Shown piece by piece: positions 15,977 to 64,000 of a DNA stretch of 64,000 nucleotides. Made by a program: the position numbers and the translations under genes. A model generated the notes under the pieces. The model was not told the origin of the DNA, searched no databases, and was given only the letters and a program-made list of their open reading frames with translations. The first letter of the stretch is position 1. Each line of letters opens with the position of its first letter. The DNA comes from Dehalococcoidia bacterium. Its GTDB lineage: Bacteria; Chloroflexota; Dehalococcoidia; Lucifugimonadales; UBA3495. The DNA lies in assembly GCA_965262735.1 (NCBI GenBank), contig CBDHFS010000002.1, forward strand, positions 2,034,802-2,098,801, read 5' to 3'.

Positions 15977-15994
15977 TCCGGTTAGTGGGGACAC

Positions 15995-16195
15995 ATGGTA
16001 CTCGCAGCATTGTTGACCGAGAAGAAGCTACGCAAAGCTTGGGAAGAGGGCCGCGAGCAAGGGCTTGAGCAAGGCCGCCAACAGGTACGGCTTTGGGAAG
16101 CATGGAACCGGCGCAGATTGGAGGCCGAGGCCCGTGGAGAAACTTTCACCGAGCCGCCGCCGGCCAACGGCCACCACGACGGAACTCCTGGATAA
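15995..16195 (+). CDS. tail cassette ORF 5 (66 aa)
   Basis: MVLAALLTEKKLRKAWEEGREQGLEQGRQQVRLWEAWNRRRLEAEARGETFTEPPPANGHHDGTPG. Weaker RBS (GTGGGG). Confidence 0.3.
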   Translation: MVLAALLTEKKLRKAWEEGREQGLEQGRQQVRLWEAWNRRRLEAEARGETFTEPPPANGHHDGTPG

Positions 16196-16221
16196 TTTTT
16201 ACAGCAAGCGGAGAAAGAAAA

Positions 16222-22924: not shown

Positions 22925-22957
22925 TCTGTCAAGCAATTAGTTTAATCTCTTGACAGA
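22925..22957. promoter_or_regulatory. palindromic operator candidate between the divergent HTH genes
   Basis: TCTGTCAAG-N15-CTTGACAGA perfect 9-bp arms in an AT-rich intergenic region. Each arm contains TTGACA. Confidence 0.55.
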
Positions 22958-23012
22958 TTCAAACTTTTATAAAACCTGGTGCGCGATTTTGAGCACCCAT
23001 GGGAGGTTGTGG

Positions 23013-23753
23013 ATGGTTGACGATGCTTTTGCTCAGGTTGAGTCTTCGGCTGAGTCCTCGGCTAATTCTTCGGTGGAATCTTCTCAGCCCCCGAGTCTGA
23101 TGGCCCAGCGTCTGCGGATTGCTCGCGAAGCCGCGGGACTCTCCCGGACGCAGGCGGCGGCCCGGGCTGAGATAGCCGATAACAGCATTTACCGTTATGA
23201 GAACGGCAGGAATACGCCGAGGTCGGAGATCCTGGCGAAGCTGGCCAGAATCTACGGGCGCCCGGTGGAGTGGTTCCGCGGGGACCCGGCCGCGGTGGTG
23301 GGGCCGATCTGGCATTTCTCTGATGCCGCCATGGCCGGGAGTATCCGGGATGTGGAGGTTACGAGTGTCCCGGTGATCGCCACGGTCGCCGGCGCGGGTT
23401 CCTTCGACTGGGACGATTCGTCCCGCTACTGGCTGCCCTACCGGCAGGACTGGCTGACGCCCAATGGGATGAATGTCCTGAATTGCCGGCTCGTTGAGGT
23501 CCGGGGGGACTCGATGCTGCCGATATTCCCGTCAGGGTCGCTAGTCATGGTGGACCTCGATCGGTTCTCCCTCTGGGACGGACGTCTCTACCTGATTTCC
23601 GTGGCCAATGAGGGGGTGGTCCTGCGCCGGGTCAGTCAGGATGGGACGGGTTGGGTTGTCGCTGCGGATAATCCTGCGGTGAGGCCCAGGATCTACGATA
23701 AGTCCTGGACGGTCTACGGCCAGGTCCGCATGTCCTACACGGTCTTCGACTAG
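23013..23753 (+). CDS. XRE-family HTH + S24 (LexA/CI-like) peptidase-domain repressor
   Basis: HTH AQRLRIAREAAGLSRTQAAARAEIADNSIYRYENGRNTP. S24 motif VRGDSMLP. GGGAGG RBS before the ATG at 23013 (alternative start 23100). Confidence 0.8.
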   Translation: MVDDAFAQVESSAESSANSSVESSQPPSLMAQRLRIAREAAGLSRTQAAARAEIADNSIYRYENGRNTPRSEILAKLARIYGRPVEWFRGDPAAVVGPIWHFSDAAMAGSIRDVEVTSVPVIATVAGAGSFDWDDSSRYWLPYRQDWLTPNGMNVLNCRLVEVRGDSMLPIFPSGSLVMVDLDRFSLWDGRLYLISVANEGVVLRRVSQDGTGWVVAADNPAVRPRIYDKSWTVYGQVRMSYTVFD

Positions 23754-24132: not shown

Positions 24133-25287
24133 ATGGCTCGAGACATATCCGGCAGAGGTCTCCGAAGCATCCTGATCGATGGACGATCTACATCTACCTG
24201 GGTAGGAACCCGGTGACGGGCGGGAGTAAGTACAAGACTGAAGTCTTCCGGGGAACTAGGAGGGAGGCCAACCGGCGGCTCACCAAGCTGCTCCCGGATC
24301 TGGATAACGGTGATTACGTCGAACCTTCCGGTTTTACCACTGCGGAGTTCATTCGGGTCTGGCTTAGGGATTTTGTCGAAGTACGGGTTCGCCAGCAGTC
24401 CTTTGTGGTGTACCGCCGTATTTCGGAGCGGCATATCATTCCCGTCCTGGGACATATTCCGGTTGAGAAGCTCAGCTCCCAGGAAATCCAGTCGATGGAG
24501 TCCGGATTTATTAGGAATGGGCTTTCAGCTCGTATGGTCCAGCATTGTCACGGGGTGCTTTCGCAGGCTCTGAAGTGGGGTGTCAAGATTAGGTATCTTG
24601 ATACGCAACGCGGCAGATCAGGTGGATGCCCCCAGATTTCAGGCCTATCGGTCCCGGACTCTGAACTGGGATGAGGTTTCAACCTTGCTGTCATTGGTGG
24701 AGTCGACACCCTATTATTCTCTGGTCCTGATCGCCCTGCTCACCGGGTTGAGGCGGTCCGAGCTGTTGGGGCTGAGGTGGCGGGACGTTGACTTTGACCG
24801 GTCCCTGGTCTCGGTGAATCACAGCCTGGTTGAGCTCCCCGGCAGGGTGGAGCTGGGTCCGACCAAGTCCGGCAGGCCGCGGTCCGTGTCCCTGCCACCG
24901 CAGGCGGTTGACTGTCTGGCGGGCCTGCTGGAGTCCCGTGGTGGGAGTGGGCCGGACCATCTTGACGGCATGGTGTTCTGCCGCGGGGATGGCCGGCCTC
25001 TCAGGCAGGGGTCGGTGTCCCGGGGTTTCCGGAAGCTGATTATGGAGGCGGGTTTCGAGGGGTTCCGTTTTCATGACCTGCGCCACACTCACGCGAGTCT
25101 GCTGCTGGGTGAGGGGGTCCATCTCAAGGTTGTGTCAGAGCGGCTGGGCCATGCCGGGATCGAGATTACTGCGGATCTGTACTCCCATGTGGCGCCGAGT
25201 CTTCAGCAGGAGGCGGCAGTTCAATTGAGTGAAAGGTTTAAGGATCTCCGGGGAGTTGATTTACAAATTGATTTACAAACGGTCTGA
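24133..25287 (+). pseudogene. tyrosine recombinase/integrase with at least two frameshifts
   Basis: ATG at 24133 has an AGGTGGA RBS, but the reading MAR... is out of frame with HIRQRSPKHPDRWTIYIYLGRNPVTG. A second shift near 24590 (ALKWGVK / LGILIRNAADQVDAPR). Catalytic R (LTGLRRSEL), HDLRHTH and LGHAGIEITADLYSH are present. Confidence 0.8.
25257..25279 (+). repeat. attR-like direct repeat
   Basis: Identical 23-mer to 19736-19758. Confidence 0.8.
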
Positions 25288-33041: not shown

Positions 33042-33161
33042 GTAACAGTTCAGACTTGGTGAGATGAATTGGTTTCAGCCAACTGCCACTTTTTTCAGGG
33101 GGTTTGGGGCAGGAGGTTTGGGGGATTCATCCCCCGACGTAATCCAACCCCCATATTCCGC
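33042..33161 (+). mobile_element. MITE copy B, 3-prime truncated
   Basis: gtaacagttcagacttggtgagatgaattgg...ccatattccgc, then diverges into tcggtggatcggggc, which resembles the IS1380-like right end. Confidence 0.75.
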
Positions 33162-33535
33162 TCTTCGGTGGATCGGGGCTAAGTCGGGCACAATTGCTAA
33201 CTCCCTCCCGTTACGTTGGCGGCTCCCATACGCAGCCGGCTCCTACCATGTCCAGCGCGGGGGCCGCACGATTAGCACCAGATTCCAGATGGACAGCGCC
33301 AGCAGTACCAGAGCCGTCGGAGCGTAGAGGTGCCCCACTCCCGCCACTGACAGGCAGACTCGGACCAACAGCAGGATGTGGGCCACTGCGAACGCCAGGG
33401 CGGCTATGCCCCAAACCAGGGAACGGCCACGATGAAAGCTCCATGCGATACTGAAGCCGGCCGCCGCCCCGGGAACCCCAATGAGGGCGTACAGGACCAA
33501 ACTGCCCCACTCCACGCCGGGGTCGTCGTACCCAA

Positions 33536-35238
33536 GCCCGAATCCACCGAAGGAGGGCGTCGGGTCAGCGTCCTGAAGTGGCCAAAGGGTGCTCCTCTGA
33601 ATCTGGGATAATGGTTTTGTAACAGCAAACCGGTCCCAGAAAAGGAGCACCCAATAGATGCTACCACGCCGCCACCCCGACCGCATCCGTATCGCCTTCG
33701 ACCAACGCTGGGCTGCTCCTTCCGGCCACCCTGGCCCGGCGCCTGGGCCTGCCCCGAACTGGTACAGGAGCACCTGGACTTGGGCGAAGCGCCGGGCCGG
33801 GCCAACACCGGAGACAAGATCATGACGCTGGTGTCCTCCGCTCTGGCGGGCGGCGACTGCATCGACGACGCCGATGTGTTGCGCACTGGCAGGACGGCCT
33901 GCGCTCTCGGCTGCGTAGTCAAGGCGCCCTCCACCCTGGGCACTTTCCTGCGCAGCTTCAGGTGGGGCCACGTCCGTCAGTTGGACCGGGTGAGCCGCGA
34001 GCTGCTGGCCCGGGCCTGGCAGGCGGGGGCCGGACCCGGCGACGCGCCATTCACCATCGACCTTGATTCGACGATCTGCGAGACTTACGGACTGGCCAAG
34101 GAGGGCGCCCGCCACCACGGCTATACCGGTGCACGGGGCTATCACCCACTGCTGGCCGTCGCCGCCGGAACCGGCGACGTGCTGATGGCCCGGCTGCGCG
34201 AGGGCCGGTCCAACACCGCCCGGGGCGCCGCCCACTTCCTGCGTGAGACGGTGAGCCGGGTTCGCTGCGGCGGGGCCAGCGGGCAGCTCACCATGCGTGC
34301 CGACAGCGGCTTCTATACCCACGCCGTGGCCGCCGTCTGCCGCCGGATGGACGTCCGCTTCTCCATCACCATCCGCCAGCACAAAAGCCTGCACAATCTC
34401 ATCGAGGCGATACCCGAAGATGCCTGGACGCCGATTCCTTACTGGATGGACGGCGCCGCCGATGTGGCCGAAACCACCTACACCCCCTTCCAGAGCGAGC
34501 CGGATGCCGCGCCGGTGCGGCTCATCGTCCGGCGGGTGAAGCCGGCGCCCGGTTCTCAACTGGCTCTCTTCGCCACCTACAGCTATCACGGCTTCATCAC
34601 CGACCGGGACGGAGAGACCCTGGAACTGGAGGCCGACCACCGCCGCCACGCCGAGATCGAGAATGCGATACGCGACCTCAAGTACGGCGTGGGGCTGAAC
34701 CATCTCCCCTCGGGCCGCTTCGCTGCCAACGGCGCCTGGCTGGCGGTACAGGTGATGGCCCACAACCTGGCCCGCTGGACCGCCCGCATCGGCCTCGGTG
34801 AGCGGACCGTGACCACCAAGACCCTCCGGCGGCGGTTCTTCGCCCTGGCCGGACGGCTCACCCGCTCGGCACGCCGGATCACCCTGCATCTTCCCAAGCG
34901 CTGGCCCTGGGAGGAGCAGTTCAGCCGCGCCCTGGCCCGACTGCGAGCCATTCCACTCCCAGCCTGACGGCGCCCGTCCGCCACTGACCCGCCAGCCAAC
35001 CCAACGTCCCCGCAAACTCGCGCCAGCCCAGTCCGCGAGCGCCTCTTGCCGTGTCCTATCCCGCCATCTCGCTCGCCACAGCCACTGCAGGCCGACATCG
35101 GCGCCCCCCAAAGCGCCTGCAGACCGCCGCCAACCTCCCATCTACCCGAATTCGAGCCCGGATTATCGCGCCTGTAACTCCCTCACCCCCTTCCGCTGTC
35201 CTCACGCCGTCCATCCCTGTCCATCGGTGGATTCGGGC
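33536..35238 (+). mobile_element. IS1380 family-like insertion sequence
   Basis: 15-bp terminal inverted repeats gcccgaatccaccga (33536-33550) / tcggtggattcgggc (35224-35238). Flanked by CAA on both sides. 1.7 kb. Confidence 0.8.
33658..34967 (+). pseudogene. IS1380 family (DDE) transposase with two N-terminal frameshifts
   Basis: ATG at 33658 with an AAAGGAG RBS. MLPRRHPDRIRIAFDQ (frame 1), AGLLLPATLARRLGLP (frame 2), ELVQEHLDLG...DKIMTLVSSALAGGDCIDDADVLR... (frame 3, to 34967). Confidence 0.75.
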
Positions 35239-38945: not shown

Positions 38946-39087
38946 GTAACAGTTCAGATTTGGAGAGATGAATTGGGTTCAGCCAACTGCCACTTTTTCA
39001 GGGGGTTTGGGGGATGAATCCCCCAACGTAACCCAACCCCATATTCTGGCATCAGCCACTCCGCTCCCCTCAACCCTGAACAGTTAC
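38946..39087 (+). mobile_element. MITE copy C
   Basis: gtaacagttcagatttgg...ccctgaacagttac. No clean target duplication. The right end abuts the second repeat family. Confidence 0.8.
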
Positions 39088-41421: not shown

Positions 41422-42666
41422 TCACTCCCGGACGACGCCGGCCTCCACCAGACTATCTATCTCTGCCGCGTCGAAGCCGAACTCCAGCAACACTTCCCGG
41501 CTGTGTTCGCCCAGGCCCGGCGCCCGCCGCCGCACCGACCCCGGCGTTTCCGACAGCTTGACCGGCACCCCGATGTGGCGCAGCGTTCCCAAGGCCGGGT
41601 CTTCCAGGTCAACCAGCATATTCCGCGCTTGAACGTGGGGGTCGGCGTACACCTGGGCCATGTCGTATATCGGCCCGGCGACCACCCCCGCCGCCCCCAG
41701 AGTCTCCAGCCAGTGGCGGGTGTCCCGTTGGCCCAGGGTCTCTTCCAGCAGCGCGGCCAACTCCGCTTCCCGGGCCTTGCGATCGCTAGGGGCGCGGAAA
41801 CGGGCATCATCAATCAGCGCTTCCAACCCCACGGCCCGGCAGAACTGCTCCCAAGTTGTCTGGGTCGCGGCCCCGAGGTTGATGTAGCCGTCTTTCGTCC
41901 GCAAGGCTTGGTAGGGGGCCGAAACCCGGTGCGCCGAACCCAGCGGGCCGGGAACGTCTCCGTTGGCGAAGTAACCGGAGGACTCCCAGATGGTGTAGGC
42001 AATCCCCGCTTCCAGCAGGGAGGTGTCCACCATTTGGCCCTGCCCGGTCTTGAGGGTGTGGATGTAGGCTGCCAGGATGCCGTTGGCCGCCAGCAGCCCT
42101 GCGGAGATGTCGGTGATGGGGACCCCGACCTTGGCCGGGGGTCCGTCGGGAAACCCGGTAATGCTCATCAACCCGCTCATGCCCTAGGCCACCAGGTCAA
42201 ACCCGCCCCGGTTCCGGTAAGGGCCGGTGCTGCCGAAACCGGAAATTGTGCAGTAGACCAGGTTGGGCCTCATGCCGCTGAGCCTCTCGTACCCCAACCC
42301 CAGCCGGTCCATAACCCCCGGACGGAAGTTCTCCGCCACCACGTCCGCCGATTCCAGCAGCCGTAGAAAGACCTCGCGCCCGGTGTCGGCTTGCAGGTTC
42401 AGGGCCAGGCTTCGCTTGTTGCGGTTCAAGGCCAGGAACCCGGCCCCCCAACCGTTGACGAAGGGCGGCCCCATTCGACGGGTATCATCGCCGCCGTTGG
42501 GTCTTTCCACCTTGACGACGTTGGCGCCCAGGTCGGCCAGCATCATGGTGCAAACCGGCCCGGCCATTATCTGGGTTAGGTCCAGCGCCACCACGCCGTC
42601 CAGGGGTCCCTTTGGCATTGCCATCGCTCCACCATCCGACAAAAATCTCGCCTGGAATTCGTGCAA
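41422..42666 (-). pseudogene. family III CoA-transferase (CaiB/BaiF/Frc type) interrupted by one in-frame TAG
   Basis: LDGVVALDLTQIMAGPVCTMMLADLGANVVKVE...GGFDLVA-TAG-GMSGLMSITG. TAG at 42184-42186 replaces the Gln of the conserved D-x-x-x-Q-x-x-S-G motif. Both halves are in the same frame. Confidence 0.8.
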
Positions 42667-42712: not shown

Positions 42713-42869
42713 GTAACAGTTCAGACTTGGTGAGATGAATTGGTTTCAGCCAACTGCCACTTTTTTCAGGGGTTTGGGGCAGGAGGTTTGAGGGATTCAT
42801 CCCCCAACGTAACCCAACCCCCATATTCCGCCATCAGCCACTCCGCTCCCCTCAACCCTGAACAGTTAC
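42713..42869 (+). mobile_element. MITE copy D
   Basis: Complete ends, flanked by the 8-bp duplication gtcataaa (42705-42712 and 42870-42877). Confidence 0.9.
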
Positions 42870-43019
42870 GTCATAAACTGTCGGCATCATTACCATCGCC
42901 AAGTGCGTGGCCGGCTCCTGGTTCCACGTGGAGCTGTTCGGCATCCCGCCCACAACACCTTCGCCGTCCTTGCCAAGCCTAGGCCCAGGCGGATAAAATT
43001 CCGTAATGAAGGAACAGAT

Positions 43020-43736
43020 ATGACCACAATCAACACAGAATCCGACTTCCTGCGCGCCCTGACGGAACACCCCGAATGGAAGGCAGCCGTCCGCGCCCAA
43101 ATACTGGGCGAAGAATTGCTGCTGCTGCCGGTGCGGTTCAATGCCTTCGTCGAGGAGCAACGGGAGGTGAACACCGAGTTCCGTGAGGCGATCACTGAGA
43201 TCCGGGAATCAGTCGCCGATCTGAAATCATTCAACGTTGAGCAGAAGAAGGCGAACGCCGAGTTCAGAGAGTCAATCGCCGAGTTGAAGGAGTCGACCCA
43301 ACGGATAATCGATGACGTGGGAATCCTCAAAGGAGACCTCGTTGGACGCGCCGCCTGGGACCGCCACCAGGAGATCCTAGACCAGCTTGGTTTCACCCTC
43401 GTAAGAATGCTTACCAAGAATGACCTGAACAACCTGGCCAACCGCAGCGGCACCACCGGCGCAGATCTTCGCAGCTTCTTCCGGGCCGACCTCATCATGG
43501 AGGTCACCGGCGATGATGGCAGCCCCCAATACGTTGCGATGGAAGCCTCATACACCGCCGACGAGCGCGACACCGACCGGGTGTTGCGCAACTGCCGGTT
43601 CATGCAGCATTTCACCAACCGACCGGCCCACCCGGTCATCTCCAGCCTCCGCAACACGCACCATGTCCTGTCCCTGGTCAACAATGGGACAGTCCATTGG
43701 TTCGAGTTGACGGAAAGGGACCTCCACACCGACTGA
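43020..43736 (+). CDS. coiled-coil protein with conserved C-terminal domain (possibly PD-(D/E)xK-like), paralog 1
   Basis: MTTINTESDFLRALTEHPEWKAAVRAQILGEELLLLP, a heptad-rich middle, and C-terminus LGFTLVRMLT...FFRADLIMEV...YVAMEASYT. Near-identical paralog at 49274-49978. Confidence 0.6.
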   Translation: MTTINTESDFLRALTEHPEWKAAVRAQILGEELLLLPVRFNAFVEEQREVNTEFREAITEIRESVADLKSFNVEQKKANAEFRESIAELKESTQRIIDDVGILKGDLVGRAAWDRHQEILDQLGFTLVRMLTKNDLNNLANRSGTTGADLRSFFRADLIMEVTGDDGSPQYVAMEASYTADERDTDRVLRNCRFMQHFTNRPAHPVISSLRNTHHVLSLVNNGTVHWFELTERDLHTD

Positions 43737-43946
43737 TACTGCCCCGCGGCCTCCGATTCCCCCTATTGTGCCGAAGTTATAACGCCACAGCCTCGGGGAA
43801 ATTCTCGATTGACCAATCTCAGGGGCCGGGGTATAACTAGCAAACCGCAACCCGTTGGAACCCGGCAGCCTTCAGTCCCGGTTCATTAGTCCCGGTTCAT
43901 TGTCGGAACGCTCAGCCATCCCGCAGCTGTTCCCAAGAGGTATCTG

Positions 43947-45410
43947 TTGAGTTCTTCCCTTGAGTCCGCCAACCGGCCCCGGGTCAAACGGGACGCCGAC
44001 TACATCTTCCACGAGTTGACCCGCAGCATCTGCCCGGAATGCAAGTCGGTTATTGACGCCCAGATAATCATCAGGGACAACCGGGTTTTCATGCGGAAGC
44101 GATGCCAGACCCACGGTTGGTTTGAAGCAATCATCAGCTCCGACGCGGAGATGTACGTCAACTCCGTCAAGTTCAACAAACCGGGGACCATCCCGCTGGA
44201 ATTCAGTACCGAGGTTAACAACGGCTGTCCCCTGGACTGCGGCCTGTGCCCGGAGCACAAGCAGCACATGTGCCTGGCTCTGGTCGAGGTCAACACTGCC
44301 TGCAACCTGAATTGCCCGGTCTGTTTCGCCAACGCCGGCATTGGCTACAGCCTGACCCTTGAGCAGGTTGAGTCCATGCTGGACCGCCTCGTGGAAACCG
44401 AGGGAGACCCGGAGGTGGTGCAGTTCAGCGGTGGTGAGCCGACAATCCACCCCCAGCTTCCCGAAATGATTCAGGCGGCCAAAGACCGGGGCATCCGGCA
44501 GGTGATGGTCAATACCAACGGCGTCCGCATTGCCAGGGACGACCGGTTCCTGGGGCGGTTGGCCCAACTGGACCCGGTCATCTATTTCCAGTTTGACGGG
44601 CTTAGACCGTCCACCTACCAGGCGATACGGGGCGAAGACCTGCTGGACACCAAGCTGCGCGCCCTGGACCGCATTAACGACGCCGGCCTAACCGCTGTGC
44701 TGGTGGCCGCGGTTGAGCGCGGCATCAACGTTGACGAAGTGGGTGCGATTGTGGAGTTCGGCTTGGAGCATCCGGCGGTGCGTGGCGTCGTGCTTCAGCC
44801 GGTGACCCACGCTGGTCGCCACCCGGATTTTGACCCCATGCAGCGGGTCACCATTCCCGACGTCATCCACGGGATTGTCCAACAGACCGCGGGGCGGTTC
44901 GTCCTGGACGACTTCGTGCCGGTACCCTGCTGTTTCCCCACCTGCCAGGTCAACACCTACGTCTTTGTGGACGGCGATACGGTCGTGCCGCTGCCCCGGC
45001 TATTGAAGATTGACGATTACCTGGACTACATCACCAACCGGGCGCTGCCCCGACTGCCCGATGCCGCCGCGGTACAAAAGGCGCTGGAGGGTCTGTGGTC
45101 GGCCTCGGCGGTGGGCGGGGCCGAAGCTACTGCCCAGCAGTTCCAATGCGCCTGCGGCCCCGGACTGGACCTGCCCGGCGACCTCACCCACCTGAAAGAC
45201 CACGTATTCCAAATTGCCATCAAGGATTTCCTCGACCCCTACACCTTCAACGTCAAGCAGGTGATGAAGTGCTGCGTGGGGGTCCTCGTCCCCGACGGAC
45301 GGGCCATACCTTTCTGCGCCTACAACTCCGTGGGGTATCGCGAGCAGGTCCGGGAGCAGCTTACCCGCGAGCAGTCCCAGCGTCTCCCGGTTGACCGACC
45401 CGCTGGATAA
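43947..45410 (+). CDS. radical SAM protein with N-terminal Cys-rich domain (MJ0619/Tes-like layout)
   Basis: CPECKSV...RCQTHG, then GCPLDCGLCPEHKQHMC, then the radical SAM CNLNCPVCFA and GGEPT. 487 aa. TTG start. Confidence 0.75.
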   Translation: MSSSLESANRPRVKRDADYIFHELTRSICPECKSVIDAQIIIRDNRVFMRKRCQTHGWFEAIISSDAEMYVNSVKFNKPGTIPLEFSTEVNNGCPLDCGLCPEHKQHMCLALVEVNTACNLNCPVCFANAGIGYSLTLEQVESMLDRLVETEGDPEVVQFSGGEPTIHPQLPEMIQAAKDRGIRQVMVNTNGVRIARDDRFLGRLAQLDPVIYFQFDGLRPSTYQAIRGEDLLDTKLRALDRINDAGLTAVLVAAVERGINVDEVGAIVEFGLEHPAVRGVVLQPVTHAGRHPDFDPMQRVTIPDVIHGIVQQTAGRFVLDDFVPVPCCFPTCQVNTYVFVDGDTVVPLPRLLKIDDYLDYITNRALPRLPDAAAVQKALEGLWSASAVGGAEATAQQFQCACGPGLDLPGDLTHLKDHVFQIAIKDFLDPYTFNVKQVMKCCVGVLVPDGRAIPFCAYNSVGYREQVREQLTREQSQRLPVDRPAG

Positions 45411-45428
45411 GCGGAAAGGAGGCGCGTA

Positions 45429-46241
45429 ATGGAACCTGACCGACCGGACCAGACGACCGCGCTGGCCTGCTGCGCCGACCTGTACCAGTCCGACCTGGCG
45501 CGCCTGCTGCTGGGCGATTCCCTGCATCCCGGGGGACTGCGGCTGACGCACCGCCTCGGTACGTTGATGGGCATTCAACCCGATGATTGGGTGGTTGACC
45601 TGGCCTGTGGCCGGGGAATCAGCGGGATGGCCGTTTCCCGGGCATTTCGCTGCAAGGTCGCCGGCATCGAATACGGCGTTGCCGCCGTGGCGGAGGCCCA
45701 CGCCGGAGCTCGGGAAGCGGCAGTCCCGGCCCGCGCCTTCTTCATCAACGCTGACGCCGGGCTGCCGCCCATCAGGCTGTCCAGCGTTGATGCTGTCCTT
45801 TGCGAGTGTTCCATGAGCATCTTCGCCGACCAGCCCGGCGCCATTGTCCAGGCTGCCCGAATGCTCCGGCCAGGAGGGATTCTGGGCTTGAGCGACGTCA
45901 CCGTCAAACCCGGCAGTCTGCCGGACGGCTTCCCCGAAGCTGTCGGCCAGGCGTTGTGTTTGACCGGCGCTCTGGACGTGGCCGGGTATACCCGGTTGGC
46001 GGGGGATGCCGGGCTGCTCCCCGAACGGTCCGAAGACGCTTCGGACGCAATAGCCGACTTGCTGAATGACCTGGAAGGCAAGCTGGGCGCGCTGGCGGCC
46101 TGGCAGTCGCTGGCGGCGGGGACGCTGCCGGTGAAAAAAGAGTGGCTGGACGCGGCCCCAGGCATTATCAATCATCTGCGCCGGCTAATAGACGACGGGG
46201 CGCTGGGATACTGGCTGTTCACGGCCCGGAAGCCGGTCTGA
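45429..46241 (+). CDS. class I SAM-dependent methyltransferase
   Basis: N-terminal ACCADLYQSDLARLLLGDSLHPGG, motif I VVDLACGRGISG, post-I GGILGLSDV. Confidence 0.8.
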   Translation: MEPDRPDQTTALACCADLYQSDLARLLLGDSLHPGGLRLTHRLGTLMGIQPDDWVVDLACGRGISGMAVSRAFRCKVAGIEYGVAAVAEAHAGAREAAVPARAFFINADAGLPPIRLSSVDAVLCECSMSIFADQPGAIVQAARMLRPGGILGLSDVTVKPGSLPDGFPEAVGQALCLTGALDVAGYTRLAGDAGLLPERSEDASDAIADLLNDLEGKLGALAAWQSLAAGTLPVKKEWLDAAPGIINHLRRLIDDGALGYWLFTARKPV

Positions 46242-49034: not shown

Positions 49035-49192
49035 GTAACAGTTCAGAGTTAGGGAGGTGAATTGTTTTCAGGCAAGGCTTTCAGGCAACTGCCAATTCTT
49101 TCCAGGGGGTTTGGGGGATGCATCCCCCAACGTAACCCAACCCCCATATTCCGCCATCGCCCCCTCTCATCCCCTCAACACCGAACAGTTAT
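49035..49192 (+). mobile_element. MITE copy E (diverged, degenerate right end cagttat)
   Basis: gtaacagttcagagttagg...ccgaacagttat. Shares an extra aaggctttca insertion with copy F. Confidence 0.75.
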
Positions 49193-49273
49193 GTCAAGGC
49201 AATCGTATTATAACTTCGGCGCGTTGGGGGATAATCGGAGGTTGCGGGGAAACACAGGAGGCGGGAGCAGCAA

Positions 49274-49978
49274 TCAGTCGGTGTGGAGGTCCCTTTCCGT
49301 CAACTGGAACCAGTGGACCGTCCCATCGTTGACCAGGGGCTGGACATGGTGGGTGTTGCGGAGGCTGGAGATGACCGCGTGGGCCGGGCGGTCGGTGAAC
49401 TGCTGCATGAACTGGCAGTTGCGCAACACCCGGTCGGTGTCGCGCTCGTCGGCGGTGTATGAGGCTTCCATCGCAACGTACTGGAGGCTGCCATCATCGC
49501 CGGTAACCTCCATGATGAGGTCAGCCCGGAAGAAGCTGCGGAGACTGGCTCCGGCGATGCCGGTGGTGTGGCTGCGGTTGGCCAGGTTGTTCAGGTCGTT
49601 CTTGGTGAGCATTCTGACGAGAGTGAAACCAAGCTGGTCAAGGATGTCCTGATGGCGGTCCCAGGCAGCGCGTCCAACGAGGTCTCCCTTGAGAATCCCC
49701 ATGTCATCAAGCATGCGTTGGTTGAACTCCCGCTGCTCGCCGTTGAACTGTTCCTCCCTGACGTTGATCTCCTTCAGCTCGGCGACTGATTCCCTGAGCT
49801 CGGCGATTGAGTCCCGGAACTCAGTGTTCGCCTCTCGCTGCTCCTCAACGAAGGCATTGAACCGCACCGGCAGCATCAGCAGTTCTTCGCCCAGTATCTG
49901 GGCGCGAACAGCTGCCTTCCATTCGGGGTGTTCCGTCAGGGCGTGCAGAAAGTCGGATTCCGTGTTGATTGTGGTCAT
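49274..49978 (-). CDS. coiled-coil protein with conserved C-terminal domain, paralog 2
   Basis: MTTINTESDFLHALTEHPEWKAAVRAQILGEELLMLP... The upstream ~65 bp is also shared with paralog 1. Confidence 0.6.
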   Translation of the reverse strand: MTTINTESDFLHALTEHPEWKAAVRAQILGEELLMLPVRFNAFVEEQREANTEFRDSIAELRESVAELKEINVREEQFNGEQREFNQRMLDDMGILKGDLVGRAAWDRHQDILDQLGFTLVRMLTKNDLNNLANRSHTTGIAGASLRSFFRADLIMEVTGDDGSLQYVAMEASYTADERDTDRVLRNCQFMQQFTDRPAHAVISSLRNTHHVQPLVNDGTVHWFQLTERDLHTD

Positions 49979-50044
49979 ATCTATTCCTTCGTTATGAAAT
50001 TTTATCCGCCTGGGCTTGGACTTGGCAAGGGCGGACCGAAGCCG

Positions 50045-50214
50045 GTAACAGTTCAGACTTGGTGAGATGAATTGGTTTCAGCCAAGGCTTTCATCCAACC
50101 GCCACTTTTTTAGGGGGTTTGGGGCAGGGGGTTTGGATGATTCATCCCCCAACGTAACCCAACCCCCATATTCCGCCATCAGCCACTCCGCTCCCCTCAA
50201 CCCTGAACAGTTAC
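50045..50214 (+). mobile_element. MITE copy F
   Basis: gtaacagttcagacttggtgagatgaattgg...ccctgaacagttac. Confidence 0.85.
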
Positions 50215-50220
50215 CGTCAC

Positions 50221-50766
50221 CAGGGCAATCACGTTTTAAATTGTAACTGCACGACTACTCAGTGTTCTGGCGTCCGTCTCTCAACAAAACCCTGGAAATG
50301 CACTCCATCACTGGAAATAGGGCTGGCTGGATGGACCAGGAGACCCAACGATATGCAAGTGGTGCACAAAAATGCCGGTCATTTGAAAGGATTATCAATT
50401 CCTTTGATACCGGTTATGCCTCGCAGTTAACCCGCGATTCCCCCAACTGACGCCCCGCCTCTTGCCAACCACGGCAACCCTTCCTTACCATAACCCCAGA
50501 CCTGCATGACGCCTCCCAACCCGCCGCGGTCCAGGGGCAAATGACATTAAATGGCATAAAATGACACGATTTCCAGGAGTCCCAACTGGTTTCAGCCGGA
50601 CCCCGCCCACCGTAACCGTTCAGTCTCGAGAGGATATACCGGCTAACCAGGCCAATTTCCAATGCCTGATTTCCAATGGTAGCAAGCGTTTCGAGGGTTT
50701 TTCGAGTAGCAACACGCCATGAGATCGAGTAATTGTCCAGTTACGAATTAAAACGCGATTGCCCTG
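50221..50766. mobile_element. ~550-bp element bounded by 29-bp imperfect inverted repeats (second non-autonomous element type)
   Basis: cagggcaatcacgttttaaattgtaactg (50221-50249) vs the reverse complement of 50738-50766 (26/29 by eye). It contains a copy of the iteron-bearing repeat family. A third copy of the end motif is at 1706-1740. Confidence 0.55.
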
Positions 50767-50976
50767 AAAACGTCACCGGCATCAGGCAATCGCCAGGCTT
50801 TCTTATCCACCGGACCTGCTCAGGGCCAGGAGGACGCCTGGTCACAACAAGCGGCAGATGTTGTGATCCCCCGCTGTTCGTTGAATCTTCAGGCGGCGGC
50901 TCTTACAATTAGGCCACGGCAATGGGGCCGCCGGCGCCCGCCGGAAGCAATCTTGGGCAAATTTGAGGGAGTTATC

Positions 50977-51216
50977 GTGACGCAAGCCAGCCAGGCCGAG
51001 ACCATCATCTACACCCATCCCGACTGCGCCTTTTCCGCGGCGGCCAAAATGGAATACCGGCGCAACAAGACGGCGTACACCGAGGTGGACGTTTCCAAGC
51101 AGCCCGACAAGATTCCCGACCTGCTGGCCCTGACCAACGGGGAAAGAGTCACGCCGGTCATCGTCGAAAACGGTCAGGTCAGCATTGGGTTCAAGGGCGG
51201 CAATTGAGAATTCTAG
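50977..51216 (+). CDS. glutaredoxin-like protein, candidate selenoprotein with Sec three residues from the C-terminus
   Basis: GTG start with a GAGGGA RBS. IIYTHPDCAFSAAAKMEY...VDVS...ERVTPVIVENGQVSIGFKGGN-TGA-GAA-TTC-TAG. As a conventional ORF it would end at 51207. Confidence 0.5.
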
Positions 51217-51218
51217 CC

Positions 51219-51234
51219 GAAGACGGTCGTCTTC
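51219..51234 (+). promoter_or_regulatory. SECIS-like hairpin (alternatively a terminator without a U tract)
   Basis: GAAGAC-GGTC-GTCTTC starts exactly 11 nt after the TGA at 51205-51207. Confidence 0.4.
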
Positions 51235-51425
51235 ACCAATTCAACGCAAGAATACAAGCAAGAGTGCGGTAAGCAGACCCGCCCATCCAACCGTTCTTCC
51301 CGATTCATCCGGGCAATTTGTGAGGACTTTTTTGATGCGAAAAATTACTGACAGTTGGCCGTTGTGAGAGTTTGGGGACCTGTGCTAGGATTCGGCCATC
51401 AAATCGGGGGAGGGAAGGGTTCACC

Positions 51426-52511
51426 ATGCCGACCGACAACAAAGACAAGCTGAATGCCCTGGAAACGGCCCTGAGCCGCATTGAGAAAGACCACGGCAAG
51501 GGCGCCGTGATGCGCCTGGGCGAGGTTGCCCAGAGCCTGGTTACCGATGTTATCCCCACCGGGTCGCTCAGCCTGGACATTGCGCTGGGTGCGGGCGGCA
51601 TCCCCCGGGGCCGCGTGACCGAAATATATGGAGGCGAGTCGGCCGGTAAGTCAACGGTGGCGATTCACATAATGGCTGAGACCCAGCGGTTGGGAGGCAT
51701 CGCCGCCTACATAGACGCCGAACACGCCCTCGACCCCACTTACGCCGCCAACTGCGGCCTGATCCTCGACGACCTGCTGATTTCCCAGCCGGACAGCGCC
51801 GAGCAAGCCCTGGACATTACCGAGCAACTGGTCCGCAGCGGCGCGATAGACACGGTGATAGTGGACAGCGTTGCCGCCCTGGTGCCCCAGGCGGAGATTG
51901 AAGGCGACATGGGAGACACCCACGTCGGCCTCCAGGCCCGGCTCATGTCCCAGGCCCTCCGCAAGCTGACCTCCGCCATTCACCGTTCCAAGACCGCCGT
52001 TGTCTTCATCAACCAACTGCGCGAAAAGGTGGGGGTCGTCTACGGCAGCCCGGAAGTCACGCCGGGGGGCCGCGCCCTGAAGTTCTACAGCTCGGTACGC
52101 ATCGACCTGCGCCGCTCGGAGTCCCTGAAGCAGGGTTCGGAGATTATCGGCAACCGGGTCCGGGCCAGAATCGTCAAGAACAAGATAGCCGCTCCTTTCC
52201 GCGTCGCCGAATTCGACATCATGTTCAACAAGGGCATCAGCAAGATGGGCGACATTCTGGACATCGGGGTTGCTCAGGGCCACGTCCGCAAGGCCGGGTC
52301 GTTCTACTCTTACGGGGATACCCGCCTGGGCCAGGGGCGTGAAGCATCCAAGCAGTTCCTGTCCGAACACCCGGAGATTGCCGACTCGGTGGAAGCCCGC
52401 ATTCGCGGCAACCAGACCACCGATCAAGCGCCATCCAGCAACGGTGCCCATCCCCCGGAAGGGGAATCCGGCGAATCCTTGGCGGCTGCCGGCTCCGAAT
52501 CGGCGGAATAA
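51426..52511 (+). CDS. recA: recombinase RecA
   Basis: [63 protein letters not shown]. Confidence 0.97.
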
Positions 52512-52564
52512 CGCGCCCGCCCTCCTCGATCCGAGTAACCGTGACGACCCGATCAACTGTCAAA

Positions 52565-53101
52565 ATGGCAAGAGGCGGTGGAGACGCGCCAACCTCCACC
52601 GCCTTTGCCACAGCCAAAGACGCTGCTCTCAGGTTCCTGACCTATCGGTCCCGCAGCGAGGCTGAGGTGCGCCGCCGGCTGTCCGGCAAGTATGCCCCGG
52701 CCACCGTAGAAGCGGTGGTCGAGTCCCTGCTGCGGCAGAATTTGCTCAACGACCTGGGCTTCGCCCGGGAATGGCGCACCAGCCGGGAGCGGTTCCGCCC
52801 CCGCGCCGCCAGTCTGGTGCGGCAGGAACTCCTGCGCAAGGGCGTATCGCCGGAGGTAATACAGGAATCTTTGCAGGAGTTTGACGACGAATCCAACGCG
52901 GCCCGCGCCGCGGCAGGATTGGCCCGACGGTTGGTCGCGCGGGAGGTCACGCAGAGGGAGTTCAAGGGAAAGTTGGCGGCCCACCTGCAACGCAGGGGCT
53001 TCGGGGGAGGCTTGGTCTGGTCAATCGTCGAGCAGCTTTGGGAAGAGCTAGGGGCGGACTCGCTGCACCGCCAGGGCGACGCCAACGACGACCAACGCTA
53101 G
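52565..53101 (+). CDS. recX: recombination regulator RecX
   Basis: ALRFLTYRSRSEAEVRRRL and a three-repeat helical layout, immediately after recA. Confidence 0.85.
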   Translation: MARGGGDAPTSTAFATAKDAALRFLTYRSRSEAEVRRRLSGKYAPATVEAVVESLLRQNLLNDLGFAREWRTSRERFRPRAASLVRQELLRKGVSPEVIQESLQEFDDESNAARAAAGLARRLVAREVTQREFKGKLAAHLQRRGFGGGLVWSIVEQLWEELGADSLHRQGDANDDQR

Positions 53102-57823: not shown

Positions 57824-57966
57824 GTAACAGTTCAGACTTGGTGGGATGAATTGGTTTCAGCCAACTGCCATTTTTTGCAGGGGGTTTGGGGGATGAATCC
57901 CACAACGTAATCCAACCCCCATATCCCGCCATCAGCCACTCTGCCCCCTCAACCCTGAACAGTTAC
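57824..57966 (+). mobile_element. MITE copy G
   Basis: Flanked by the 9-bp duplication ggcccttcg (57815-57823 and 57967-57975). Confidence 0.9.
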
Positions 57967-58143
57967 GGCCCTTCGCACCCAATTGGCAAATGGGCGACAA
58001 CCCGTTATACTGCCGCAAATTAGTGGTTTCCAGGGTTTTTCCTCTCCCATCCGCATTGACACGGCTGCTCTACCCGGCTCTATTCCAGGCAGTTCCTCGA
58101 GATGTGCGCTTCGAGGGATTCCCGGGTCAAAGGCAGCATCACC

Positions 58144-59107: not shown

Positions 59108-62100
59108 GTGCGAAGGCCGCCAATGCGCCTTCCGGTAAGTTTGGGGTGGAAAGCCGGGTTGCTGCTGGCCCTGGCTATCCAGTCCTTTGCACCCCAGGCG
59201 TCAGTCTCGGTCAACGCCCAAGCCGTCCAGGACGTTGGCGTCACCGCCATCGAACTCCCCACCGGCCCGGTCAACCAGGGCGACACCGCAGAGATAAAGG
59301 TGACTATCGAAAACCTGGGTTCCTCCACCGCTTCCGTCATGGTAATTCTTAATTATCTTGATGCAGATTACACGGCCGCAGGTGTCGGGCAAACGATGCA
59401 AGACGTTGCGGCAGGCCAGACCTCGAAAGCGTCCTTCTCCTGGGACACCACCGGCGTCCCCCTCGGCAGCTACATTTTCCAGGCAGTAGCGTTGTCGGGT
59501 GAAAACCTCGACGGCGAGGACGGCAACTATGAGAATAACTCCCTGATTTCAACAAGCTCGGTCACCATTCGCACCCCGCCGCCCTACGCTGTTGCCGTCA
59601 CCGCCGTCGATGTCCCCGCCGGGCCAGCAATCCAGGGTGAAACCGTGGACGTGGAGGTGACCGTCAAGAATCAGGGGACTTCCGATGCCAACGCCAAGAT
59701 AACGCTTTTGTACGTTCCGGCCGAGGGACAACCGGGAATCGCCGCCGAGAAAACCGTTGCCATCGCCGCCGGAGCCACCGAAACGGTGACCCTGTCCTGG
59801 GACACATCCGGCACCACCCTGGGCGTCTACACCATCAGGGCCGGCGCCACCCTGGTTGAGGACAGCAGCGTTGCCCATTTCTTGATTTCGACAACTTCCA
59901 TTACCATTGTCACCCCGCCTCCGTATGCCGTTGCCGTCACCGCCGTAAAGGCTGCCAGCGCCACAGCAATCCAGGGGGCCACCGTGGACGTGGACGTGAC
60001 CGTCAAGAATCTGGGGACATCCGACGCCAACGCCAAGATAACGCTTTTGTACGTCCCCGCCGAGGGCCAACCGGGAATCGCCGCCGAGAAAACCGTTGCC
60101 ATCGCCGCCGGAGCCGCCGAAACGGTCACCCTATCGTGGGACACATCCGACTCGACGCCGGGCGTCTACACCATCAGGGCCGGCGCAACCCTGGTTGAGG
60201 ACACTGACGTTGCCCATTTCCTGGTTTCGACAACTTCCATCACCATTGTCACCCCGCCTCCGTATGCCGTTGCCGTCACCGCCGTAAAGGCTGCCAGCGC
60301 CACGGTAACCCAGGGGGCCACCGTGGACGTGGACGTGACCGTCAAGAATCTGGGGACATCCGACGCCGACGCCAAGATAACGCTTTTGTACGTTCCCACC
60401 GAGGGCCAACCGGGAATCGCCGCCAACAAAACCGTTGCTATCGCCGCCGGAGCCGCCGAAAAAGTCACTCTATCCTGGGATACTTCCGACTCGACGCCGG
60501 GCGTCTACACCATCAGGGCCGGCGCCACTTTGGTTGAGGACACCAGCGTTGCCGACTTTCGGGACGCGGCATCCACCGTCACCATTAGCACCCCGCCTCC
60601 CTATGCCGTTGCCGTTACCGCCGTGGATGTTGCCAGCGCCACGGCAACCCAGGGTGAAGTCGTGGACGTGGAGGTGACCGTCAAGAATCTGGGGACATCC
60701 GACGCCAACGCCAAGCTAACCCTCCTGTACGTTCCCGCCCAGGGCCAACCGGGAATCGCCGCCGAGAAAACCGTTGCCATCGCCACTGGAGCCGCCGAAA
60801 CGGTCACCCTATCGTGGGACACATCCGACGCTACGCCGGGTGTCTATACTATCAGGGCTGGCACCACCCTGGTTGAGGACGCTGACGTTGCCCATTTCCT
60901 GGTTTCGACAACTTCCGTCACCATTAGCGCCCCGACCTATGGCGTTTCCATCACCGCCTTTGATGTCCCATCCGGTCCGGCAACCCAGGGCTATGTCGTT
61001 GACGCGGACGTGACGGTCAAGAACCTCGGTTCAGTCGCGGCAATGTTCACGGTGACGCTCTTTGACCAACCCGCCGGTGGCACGGAAGGGACTGCGGACG
61101 AGGAAACCGTCGAGATTGCCCCGCCGCCACCAAGAAAGTCACCCTATCTTGGGACACATCCAACGCTACGCCGGGCGCCCACACCTTCAGGGCCGGCGTC
61201 ACTTTGGTTGATGACACCAACGTTTCCGACTTCCTGGACTCGGCAGCTACCATCACCATTAGCCCGCCGCCTTATGCTGTTGCCATCACCGCCGTTGAGG
61301 TTGCCAGCGCAACGGCAATCCAGGGGGCCACCGTGGAGGTGGAAGTGACCGTCGAGAATCAGGGGACATCCGACGCCAACGCCAAGATAACGCTTCTGTA
61401 CGTTCCCGCCGAGGGCGAACCGGGAATCGCCGCCAAGAAAACCGTTGCCATCGCCGCTGGAGCCACCGAAACGGTCACCCTATCCTGGGATACATCCGGC
61501 ACCACCCTCGGCGCTTACACCATCAGGGCCCGCGCAACCCTGGTTGAGGACAGCACCGTTGCCGATTCCTTGGACGGGGCATCCACCATCACCATTAGCG
61601 CTCCACCGCCCTATGCCGTTGCCGTCACCGCCGTTGAGGTTGCCAGCGCAACGGTAATCCAGGGGGAAACCGTGGACGTGGAGGTGACCGTCAAGAATCT
61701 GGGGACATCCGACGCTAACGCCATGATAACGCTTCTGTACGTCCCCGCCGAGGGCCAACCGGGAACCGCCGCCGAGAAAACCGTTGCTATCGCCGCCGGA
61801 GCCGCCGAAACGGTCACTCTATCGTGGGACACAGCCGACGCCAACCCCGGCGCCCACACCATCAGGGCCGGCGCCACCCTGGTTGAGGACACCAATGTTT
61901 CTGACTACCGGGACGCGGCATCCACCATCACCATTAGCGCCCTGACCTATGGCGTTTCCATCACCGCCTTTGATGTCCCATCCGGTCCGGCAACCCAGGG
62001 CTATGTCGTTGACGCGGACGTGACGGTCAAGAACCTCGGTTCAGTCGCGGCAAGGTTCACGGTGACGCTTTTTGACCAACCCTCCGGTGGCACGGAAGGA

Positions 62101-64000
62101 ACTGCGGACGAGGAAACCGTTGAGATTGCCGCCGGCGCCACCAAGACGGTCACCCTATCCTGGGACACATCCGACGCTACGCCGGGCGCCCACACCTTCA
62201 GGGCCGGCGTCACTTTGGTTGATGACACCAACGTTTCCGACTCCCTGGACTCGGCAGCCATCATCACCATCAGCGTCCCACCGCCCTACGCCGTTGCCGT
62301 CACCGCCGTCGATGTCCCCGCCGGGCCAGTAACCAGGGGGGACACCGTGGACGTGGGCGTGACCGTCGAGAATCAGGGAACCTCCGACGCCAACGCCAAG
62401 ATAACGCTCCTGTACGTCCCCGCCGAGGGCGAACCGGGAATCGCCGCCGAGAAAACCGTTGCTATCGCCGCCGGAGCCACCGGAACGGTCACCCTGTCCT
62501 GGGATACTTCCGACGCCGCCCTCGGCGCACACACCGTCAGGGCCGGCGTCACCCTGGTTGAGGACACCAACGCTGCCGACTCCCGGGACGCGGTATCCCC
62601 CATCACCATTATCCTACCGCCTTATGCCGTTGCCGTCACCGCCGTCGATGTTCCCGCCGAGCCGGTAGCCCAGGGGGAAACCGTCGACGTGGTCGTGTCC
62701 GTCGAGAATCAAGGGACCTCCAACGCCGCCGCCATGATAACGCTTCTGTACGTCCCCGCCGAGGGCGAACCGGGAACCGCCGCCGAGAAAACCGTTGCCA
62801 TCGCCGCCGGCTCCACCGAAACGGTCACCCTGTCCTGGGATACTTCCGACGCCGCCCCCGGCGCCTACACCATCAGGGCCGGCGCCACCCTGGTTGAGGA
62901 CAGCAATGTTTCCGACTCACAGGACGCGGTATCCACCATCACCATTAGCCCACCGCCCTACGCCGTTGCCGTCACCGCCGTGGACATAGCCAGCGCGACC
63001 GTCACCAAGGGCGACACCCTGGATGTGGACGTGACCGTGGAGAATCGGGGGACCTCCGACGCCAACGCCGTGGTCACGGTTCTGTACGTTCCCACCGACG
63101 GCCAACCGGGAATCGCAGCTGCGGAAACTGTCGCCATCGCCGCAGGGGAGTCGGAGACCACTACCCTGTCCTGGAATACCTCCGAGGCCACGCCCGGCGC
63201 CTACACCATTAGGGCCAGCGTCACCCTGGTTGAGGACACCGACGTTTCCGATTCCCGGGACGCGTTGTCCACCATCACCATTGGGACCCCAACCTATGGC
63301 GTCGTCGTAACCTCCGTTGATGTCCCCACCGGGCAGGCAACCCAGGGCGACACGGTGGACATACTTGTGGCCATTGAAAACCGCAGCTCGGTCGCGGCAA
63401 TGTTTGAGGTGACGCTCTTTTACCAACGCGCAGGTGGTCAGGAAGGAATCGCCGCTAAGGAAACCTTCAAAATCACCGCTGGCTTTACCAAGGGTCTCAC
63501 CATGTCCTGGGATACATCCGGCGTTACGCCTGGCGTTTACCAGGTCGGCGCCAAGGTGATGTTGGTGGGAGTGGCAGGCGTTGACGATTCCCGGATTTCT
63601 GAAACGTCCATCACTATCATCGCCCCCGTAACCTACGGCGTCTCCATCACCGCCATTGATGTCCCCGCCGGGCCGGTAGCCCAGGGGGAAACCGTTGACG
63701 TTGACGTGACCATTGAGAACAGCAGCTCAGTCGCGGCAATGTTCGCAGTGACGCTCTTTTACCAACCCGCCGGTGGCCAGGAAGTAACCGCAGCAGAGGA
63801 AACCGTCGAAATCGCCGCTGGCGCTATCGAAACGGTCACCCTGAATTGGGATATATCCGACGCCACCTTCGGCGTGTACACCATCAGGGCCAAGGCGATA
63901 CTAGCGGACGTGGCAGGTGTTGACGACGTTGCCGATTCCCGGATTTCTGAAACGTCCATCACCATCAGCGCCCCCGTAACCTACGGCGTCGCCGTCACCG
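59108..64000 (+). CDS. giant secreted protein made of tandem CARDB-like domains (partial, runs off the window; one frameshift near 61120)
   Basis: Signal peptide MRLPVSLGWKAGLLLALAIQSFAPQASVSVNA. At least 15 repeats of ~113 aa (PPPYAVAVTAVDVP.GP..QGETVDVEVTVKNQGTSDANAKITLLYVP....TVAIAAGATETVTLSWDTS....YTIRAGATLVED). The frame changes from 2 to 1 at 61118-61122. Confidence 0.8.
59576..64000 (+). repeat. coding tandem repeat, period ~339 bp, at least 13 units
   Basis: Repeat starts at 59576, 59915, 60254 and so on. Neighbouring units are near-identical at the DNA level. A 3-unit block (60925-61938) is re-duplicated at 61939-62950. Confidence 0.9.

Follow-up and report, generated by a model that had tools for sequence, protein, structure and literature searches.

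A glutaredoxin-like gene upstream of recA in a Dehalococcoidia bacterium whose in-frame UGA very probably encodes selenocysteine

Does a short gene that appears to stop at TGA really end there? The question is raised by a glutaredoxin-like open reading frame (ORF) in a stretch of 64,000 nucleotides (nt) from a Dehalococcoidia bacterium (GenBank assembly GCA_965262735.1, contig CBDHFS010000002.1, positions 2,034,802 to 2,098,801 of the forward strand). We call this whole stretch the window and number all positions within it. The ORF starts with GTG at 50977-50979 and runs for 76 sense codons up to a TGA; TAG follows two codons later, and a perfect hairpin begins two bases past the TAG. A first reading made from the letters alone (the sequence-only reading) had proposed that this TGA encodes selenocysteine (Sec) and that the hairpin resembles the selenocysteine insertion sequence (SECIS) of bacteria. 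The ORF, the TGA, the TAG, the CAFS motif and the hairpin of that reading all match the sequence, which confirms its observation, and the analysis described here supports its interpretation: the UGA at 51205-51207 is very probably decoded as Sec in a gene of UXX-star family 2. The parts of the gene that bear on this question are as follows.

50977-51216, forward strand: full coding sequence of the putative selenoprotein, 79 codons (76 plus Sec, Glu and Phe) followed by TAG as the predicted true stop; assigned from the NF041211 match and the family-wide TGA-Glu/Asp-Phe-stop arrangement.
51025-51036, forward strand: active-site motif Cys17-Ala-Phe-Ser20 (CxxS), placed at the N terminus of helix 1; the Cys17 codon is 51025-51027.
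51205-51207, forward strand: in-frame UGA, predicted Sec residue 77; TGA in the window and in all 80 related loci, and Cys at this column in the homologues P0140, P0144, P0152, P0157 and P0188.
51208-51216, forward strand: Glu codon GAA (51208-51210), Phe codon TTC (51211-51213) and predicted true stop TAG (51214-51216).
51219-51234, forward strand: SECIS-like hairpin within the 3' untranslated region (UTR), with a 6-bp stem GAAGAC/GUCUUC and a GGUC tetraloop at 51225-51228; supported by covariation.

The 76-codon frame, which together with its TGA spans 50977-51207, encodes MTQASQAETIIYTHPDCAFSAAAKMEYRRNKTAYTEVDVSKQPDKIPDLLALTNGERVTPVIVENGQVSIGFKGGN, and the 76-residue product reads MTQASQAETIIYTHPDCAFS...GQVSIGFKGGN. 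The M/V-T-Q start stands at the same position in homologues of the protein, and C17 and S20 are invariant among the close ones. UGA is not globally reassigned in this genome, because TGA ends 20 of the window's 52 predicted genes, at normal lengths.

To place the protein, we compared it with curated profiles. The 76-residue product scores 110.7 bits against NF041211, the NCBIfam equivalog model "UXX-star (seleno)protein family 2", for which the curated cut-off is 100 bits. Appending C-E-F, that is, reading the TGA as Cys, raises the score by 8.5 bits to 119.2 and extends the alignment to positions 2-71 of 71. Because the match then reaches the last profile position, the curated model expects three residues past ...GGN, and C/U-E-F fits those three positions. 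The protein also clears the cut-off of the parent model NF041212 (Uxx-star family), and its scores fall below those of families 1 and 3 (61.7-65.6 versus 72 and 68.6-69.3 versus 97 bits). NCBI names the homologue P0022 [quoted passage not shown]. On its profile scores, then, the window protein is a member of UXX-star family 2, and the gene belongs to a selenoprotein family that is already curated (NF041211), published and known: a passage of a 2026 review lists family 2 among the prokaryotic selenoprotein families, with reference to Haft and Tolstoy (2025) (PMC13188914). We also considered and rejected a classical dithiol glutaredoxin or NrdH-redoxin. The motif is CAFS rather than CxxC, and the protein misses all the family cut-offs, scoring 31.3 versus 85.75 for TIGR02194 (NrdH), 34.2 versus 88.55 for TIGR02196 (YruB) and 29.4 versus 90 for TIGR02181 (Grx3); Pfam returns only the generic glutaredoxin domain (PF00462, 30.8 bits).

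The same generic domain agrees with the predicted structure. An AlphaFold model of the 76-residue form, built on 16 homologues and without the Sec-Glu-Phe tail, has a mean predicted local distance difference test score (pLDDT) of 81.8 and places its strands (E) and helices (H) in the order E-H-E-H-E-E: a strand at residues 9-13, a helix at 18-30, a strand at 35-38, a helix at 43-52, and strands at 61-64 and 67-70. A C-terminal helix is absent from the model, and pLDDT stays below 50 in the tail (residues 73-76). The best Foldseek matches are BC3987 (3zij, template modelling (TM) score 0.76), NrdH (1h75, TM score 0.73) and a clostridial glutaredoxin (7c10), and Cys17 aligns with the first Cys of CPPC or CPYC (CxxC) in these solved glutaredoxin- and NrdH-like proteins. 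The model thus predicts a minimal, glutaredoxin-like thioredoxin fold. Two claims of the sequence-only reading are borne out here: the thioredoxin fold, by PF00462, the AlphaFold model and the Foldseek matches, and membership of a glutaredoxin-like family ending in Uxx-stop, which it had brought up, by an NF041211 score above cut-off that C-E-F improves by 8.5 bits.

If the TGA were a sense codon, the sequence beyond it should be conserved as protein. A search of 5.8 billion proteins returned 544 relatives of the window protein, and in all 20 top relatives examined the tail reads ...G-F-K-G-G followed by N, Y, T or S and ends where the TGA sits. A locus scan of one genome per GTDB species then gave 80 loci, all from metagenome-assembled genomes (MAGs) of Dehalococcoidia, Chloroflexota or SAR202. 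The first stop is TGA in the window and in every one of the 80, and one related locus breaks off at a contig edge right at the TGA. The sequence-only reading had held that homologues uniformly ending at ...GGN, with no extension aligned to Cys or Sec, would refute it; what we found is that 80 of 80 assessable relatives carry the TGA, then exactly two codons for Glu or Asp and Phe, then a stop of any of the three types. In 78 sequences (the window plus the 77 loci that the first motif search matched), the first codon is GAA in 19, GAG in 27, GAC in 30 and GAT in 2; the second is TTC in 63 and TTT in 15; and the second stop is TAG in 49, TAA in 20 and TGA in 9. Amino acids and stop function are thus conserved while the nucleotides vary, which is the signature of translated sequence.

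More distant relatives provide a second line of evidence. A second search, of 1.84 billion representatives at 50% identity, recovered members that end in Cys-x-x-stop or a close variant of it: P0140 (...GVGCAF), P0144 (...GFGCSF), P0188 (...GFGCVE), P0157 (...GIGCNFS) and P0152 (...GIGCNYNY). Three of these, P0140, P0157 and P0152, pass the NF041211 cut-off themselves, and a joint alignment puts their Cys in the column of the window's TGA; the Sec-form loci have TGA at this column. Both Cys forms and Sec forms fall within the model. In the DNA of two Cys forms the aligned codon is TGT and TGC. No GC-rich hairpin lies downstream of either of these two genes, one of which is followed by AT-rich sequence and the other by an apparent tRNA gene; the hairpin therefore accompanies the TGA forms.

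The hairpin itself, GAAGAC-GGTC-GTCTTC, has its stem base 11 nt and its apical loop 17 nt past the TGA, and the second distance falls inside the 16-37 nt that separate the UGA from the apical loop in bacterial SECIS elements (PMC10778597). It is the sole match in the window to the pattern of a TGA, a spacer and a hairpin with G-T in the loop; a search of the window and the loci for a second selenoprotein candidate of this kind gave no other clean match in the window, and a search of both for cross-locus conservation across other in-frame TGAs turned up nothing but off-frame artefacts and in-frame neighbouring genes. When 77 distinct 3' ends are aligned, the hairpin stays in register, with the second loop base G invariant and the next base, T, conserved in at least 90%, and a simple stem search places the stem base 10-13 nt past the TGA in most loci. 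The stem sequence varies among relatives (GAAGAC/GTCTTC, CGGGCC/GGCCCG, GGAGGCC/GGCCTCC and GGGTC/GACCC). We computed covariation on the 53 tetraloop sequences taken separately. In these, 95.6% of cells are paired and compensatory double changes occur in five of the six pairs; there are 50 doubly changed cells, compared with 13.3 +/- 2.6 in column shuffles, and not one of 500 shuffles attains the observed covariation score. As a control, the 3' arm was slid by one to three columns, which reduces pairing to 22-54%. RNAalifold run on all 77 sequences gives a weak consensus of four pairs, because the 3' arm is displaced by one column between triloop and tetraloop variants. The alignment indicates that the hairpin is a conserved, covarying RNA structure under selection. 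The GU loop and the spacing on which the SECIS-like assignment had been based are present, and covariation across relatives supports it.

Several observations weigh against decoding of the UGA as Sec. In the single sequence the folding energy of the hairpin is just -7.4 kcal/mol, and shuffles of the 55-nt region fold equally well (z = -0.68). A pattern of TGA, 8-16 nt, a GC-rich stem and an NGTY or GTN loop occurs about three times in mononucleotide shuffles and once in the real window. The hairpin is unremarkable in a single sequence; the evidence beyond chance is comparative. Rfam at gathering thresholds gave no match anywhere in the window, and the hairpin is without the bulged U of the Escherichia coli fdhF element. 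The relatives L060 and L071 have a hairpin loop with no G, which may be lineage variation. Both (L060 9297-9346 and L071 10208-10257) keep TGA-GAC-TTC-TAA ahead of an ATTT loop and a stem mismatch, and their subclade has the active site CPFS and the tail ...KGQY-U-DF. Finally, the Sec machinery of this genome is assumed: ARAGORN found no tRNA-Sec in the window, where there is no tRNA gene of any kind, and no sel genes were seen in the 10 kb beyond the left window end, reached through an identical protein on other contigs.

Wider searches for the machinery gave the same result. NCBIfam annotated no SelA, SelB or SelD among 50 predicted proteins spread over the window; ARAGORN detected no tRNA-Sec in the 80 related loci (approximately 1.5 Mb); and tblastn with approximate E. 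coli SelA, SelB and SelD queries, used only as probes, found no match in the window or the loci. The stretches searched for sel genes cover less than 2% of the genome of approximately 4.4 Mb. Elsewhere in the class, the cultured Dehalogenimonas has selC, selB and genes for Sec synthesis (PMC4918011), and Dehalococcoidia MAGs of the same naming series contain 46-49 selenoprotein genes according to a 2026 database paper (PMC13326102). From the comparison of loci, an intact UGA, tail and hairpin across so many lineages would be hard to explain without working Sec machinery. Further indirect support for the machinery comes from an ORF at 6357-7384 (forward strand) that scores 266 bits against TIGR04553 ("putative selenate ABC transporter substrate-binding protein"; cut-off 250). 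The ORF spans only profile positions 16-222 of 266 and continues without a break into a PhnE-like permease, of which just the C-terminal half is present (positions 128-250 of 252), and the ATPase gene is absent; the arrangement therefore looks like an internal operon deletion. It is found on independent contigs too, and therefore is no assembly error.

We next weighed other explanations of the TGA and the hairpin, for which the gene downstream matters.

51426-52511, forward strand: recA (TIGR02012, 503.5 bits); listed as genomic context only.

One alternative is that the TGA is an ordinary stop, so that the protein ends ...GGN and the hairpin serves as a stabiliser of the mRNA 3' end or as a terminator or attenuator before recA. 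Gene callers in every source do end the protein there, giving 76-residue products, the hairpin does sit in the intergenic region 5' of recA, and the Sec machinery was not seen in the sequence searched (the window and approximately 1.5 Mb of related loci). This explanation, however, leaves unaccounted for the two synonymously varying Glu/Asp-Phe codons and the second stop in 80 of 80 assessable relatives, the Cys-x-x-stop ends of Cys-form members at the same column, and the three positions of NF041211 past ...GGN with their gain of 8.5 bits. A terminator would call for a T tract, but none follows the hairpin in the window (the next sequence is ACCAATTCAACG) and a run of at least four T lies nearby in just 9 of 78 sequences; a scan of 50400-51500 likewise found no terminator-like site. 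The loop G-U, moreover, is conserved on one strand only, as recognition by SelB would predict. An ordinary stop thus seems very unlikely.

It is also conceivable that the gene is a decaying pseudogene, or that this genome has lost the Sec trait and the TGA now truncates the protein. The unobserved Sec machinery (in the window and the related loci), the truncated look of the putative selenate-transporter operon, and the insertion sequence (IS) elements and the in-frame TAG in another window gene would all fit such a history. But at least 23 independent contigs carry the identical protein with intact TGA-GAA-TTC-TAG and hairpin, close and distant relatives alike retain the signature intact, and the window's own hairpin is perfect where erosion would be expected, all of which makes decay or trait loss highly improbable. 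That the inverted repeat is a DNA operator, for instance a LexA/SOS-type box for recA that follows the TGA by coincidence, is scarcely credible: its perfect palindromic arms do lie directly 5' of recA in conserved synteny and the window does encode a LexA-like helix-turn-helix/peptidase S24 protein (22950-23753), but the stem varies by compensatory changes that keep RNA pairing and would lose a protein-recognition sequence, what is conserved is the loop G-T, which is not palindromic, the repeat keeps a conserved distance from the TGA (10-13 nt) while its distance from recA varies (120-300 nt), and further downstream recA has a conserved, promoter-like block of its own.

How, then, might the gene be expressed if its UGA is a Sec codon? 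Two signals precede the start codon.

50881-50909, forward strand: promoter-like site TTGAAT-17-TACAAT, approximately 70 nt 5' of the start codon; putative, from a consensus scan alone.
50965-50971, forward strand: Shine-Dalgarno sequence GAGGGAG, 5 nt 5' of the GTG start; read from the sequence.

From the observed family, fold, UGA-X-X-stop end and covarying hairpin, we infer Sec insertion, SelB binding and redox or metal chemistry in the following way. Translation would begin at the GTG at 50977, and the ribosome would not terminate at the UGA at 51205-51207. While it stands at this codon, the hairpin at 51219-51234 would act as a bacterial SECIS and recruit SelB with Sec-tRNA(Sec). Sec would be inserted, Glu and Phe added, and termination would follow at the UAG at 51214-51216. 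Because just two codons follow the UGA, the SECIS would lie wholly in the 3' UTR. That a bacterial SECIS can function in untranslated sequence if the Sec codon stands close to the gene's end is known from recombinant thioredoxin reductase produced in E. coli (PMC10778597). If read-through is true, the gene offers a clear-cut natural case of a bacterial SECIS acting wholly from the 3' UTR, two codons past the Sec codon.

In glutaredoxins, a Gly-Gly turn after the last strand adjoins the active site. Here a monothiol CxxS (Cys17) would be combined with a flexible tail, Lys-Gly-Gly-Asn-Sec-Glu-Phe, in place of the usual last helix, and Sec77 on this Gly-Gly tail would stand in for the missing resolving cysteine. 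The redox centre would probably be divided, with CxxS at the N terminus and Sec at the C terminus. The selenenylsulfide centre of Cys and Sec that the sequence-only reading proposed is plausible. Cys17 and Sec77 might form a reversible selenenylsulfide or else hold a soft metal or metalloid as a thiolate/selenolate pair, and on the predicted fold we consider the chances of a selenenylsulfide and of a metal or metalloid role to be evenly balanced. It counts against the selenenylsulfide that the Cys17-Sec77 bond is deduced from the fold alone, using the model of the 76-residue form. According to the review cited above, the Sec of family 2 may bind metals or other substrates (PMC13188914).

The proposal also has a consequence for annotation. 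The identical protein is found in many public assemblies, where it is ended at the UGA and labelled "glutaredoxin", and it is encoded as well by a circular 4.43-Mb contig (ERZ25072076:ctg246042_69x_c; 4,425,306 bp). Close homologues are encoded on the Dehalococcoidia chromosomes OZ253670.1 and OY762444.1 and on the 2.8-Mb contig CBDBDT010000002.1. Gene callers that cut the protein at the UGA would lose the Sec-Glu-Phe tail, which is catalytically decisive if the UGA encodes Sec.

What the family does may be reflected in its neighbourhood, in which a second recombination gene follows recA.

52541-53101, forward strand: recX, directly after recA; matched by RecX models.

The selenoprotein gene lies 218 nt 5' of recA. 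Among the related loci, recA is downstream on the same strand in 76 of 78, at a distance of 120-300 nt in almost all, and a divergently transcribed gene for a tetratricopeptide repeat (TPR) protein lies upstream. In the window the TPR gene and the selenoprotein gene are set apart by an insertion of approximately 2.6 kb, which carries two unknown ORFs as well as copies of a dispersed repeat. Nothing notable lies on the opposite strand beneath the selenoprotein gene. Upstream of recA, a block at 51340-51395 is shared with close relatives (ACTGACAGTTG...TTGTGA-18 nt-TGCTAGGAT) and resembles a recA promoter, with a -35 element TTGTGA at 51362-51367, an extended -10 element at 51383-51391 and a possible operator just upstream. 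As this block gives recA its own promoter-like sequence past the hairpin, co-regulation is possible but not indicated. We considered whether the selenoprotein is functionally tied to recA-recX, either as a Cys-Sec mini-glutaredoxin in DNA repair or the damage response, or through SECIS-dependent read-through or termination at the UGA that varies with selenium supply and modulates transcription into recA. If so, the gene would be a selenium- or redox-sensing leader for recombination functions. We regard such a tie as unlikely; what weakens it is the conserved, promoter-like sequence that recA has downstream of the hairpin. The near-universal place of the gene before recA-recX in Dehalococcoidia is nevertheless a concrete lead to the function of the family.

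The window has other features of note. The dispersed repeat is intergenic, approximately 150-170 nt long and present in at least seven copies (9082-9225, 33042-33199, 38946-39087, 42713-42869, 49067-49192, 50045-50214 and 57824-57967), one of them approximately 760 nt upstream of the selenoprotein gene; with inverted ends (GTAACAGTTCAG ... CTGAACAGTTAC), it resembles a miniature inverted-repeat transposable element. Two longer inverted repeats of approximately 770 nt (42964-43737 and 49273-50034), 78-89% complementary, are two paralogous ORFs ending ...LTERDLHTD, for which Pfam and NCBIfam gave no match. They flank a 5.5-kb segment with radical SAM, methyltransferase, PlsY-like and TPR genes and one unknown gene. 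The best NCBIfam match of the radical SAM protein (43947-46241, forward strand) is "radical SAM (seleno)protein TrsS", at 358 bits against a cut-off of 490 and nearly tied with the tetraether lipid synthase Tes, and the methyltransferase that follows is DVU_1556-family-like (112 bits against a cut-off of 155). Being below cut-off, the two are therefore relatives only of the TrsS and DVU_1556 families. The pair lies within 10 kb of the selenoprotein gene in approximately one-quarter of related loci.

A family III coenzyme A (CoA)-transferase gene (CaiB/Frc-like; 41425-42666, reverse strand) is broken by a single in-frame TAG at 42184-42186. Its halves match profile positions 5-151 and 155-388, and the TAG falls in a conserved ...GFDLVA-*-x-MSGLMSITG region, at a position where we presume a Gln codon (CAG) would be expected; it may be a nonsense mutation, the mark of a pseudogene or a sequencing error. 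Mobile-element genes encode an IS21 transposase with its IstB helper (20122-22412), an IS1380 transposase (33780-34967) and a tyrosine recombinase (24580-25287); the last matches only the C-terminal part of XerC/XerD models and may be a fragment. A tandem array of approximately five units of 193-240 nt, 63-92% identical, occupies 15095-16273 and overlaps small ORFs starting M..K.V.RYGFGKHG. From 59108 to 64000 (forward strand), a very large repetitive gene that matches CARDB/Ig-like domains contains at least 12 tandem units of approximately 339 nt (113 residues), 60-93% identical, and runs off the window end.

Comparison with known systems places the gene closest to its own family. With UXX-star family 2 as curated in NF041211, it shares a glutaredoxin-like protein with Sec or Cys three residues before the stop, and there is no essential difference. 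Families 1 and 3 agree with the window protein in fold, in size and in a C terminus of the form Uxx-stop or Cxx-stop. The review describes family 2 by the motif "GxGU" and family 1 by two Sec residues, including a UxxT active site (PMC13188914), whereas the window gene has G-G-N-U before its stop, with a single predicted Sec and a CxxS active site; "GxGU" fits more distant members, which end ...G-V-G-(U). The closest solved folds are those of NrdH-redoxin, BC3987 and small dithiol glutaredoxins, and Cys17 stands at the first Cys of their CxxC. Those proteins have CxxC and a C-terminal helix, whereas the window protein has Ser at the second Cys and would have a Sec tail instead of the helix. 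In the minimal SECIS of E. coli fdhF, the UGA is followed by a spacer of 11 nt, a short stem that contains GC and a GGUC loop, the G and U of which make contact with SelB. The window's hairpin resembles it in its 11-nt spacer, 6-bp stem and GGUC loop, but the fdhF element lies inside the reading frame and that of the window wholly past the predicted real stop, in the 3' UTR, where its binding of SelB is putative. Mammalian thioredoxin reductase (Gly-Cys-Sec-Gly) likewise has a flexible C-terminal tail, on which Sec stands a few residues short of the stop; it is an unrelated flavoprotein in which the partner Cys is adjacent to Sec, whereas in the window protein the presumed partner is Cys17.

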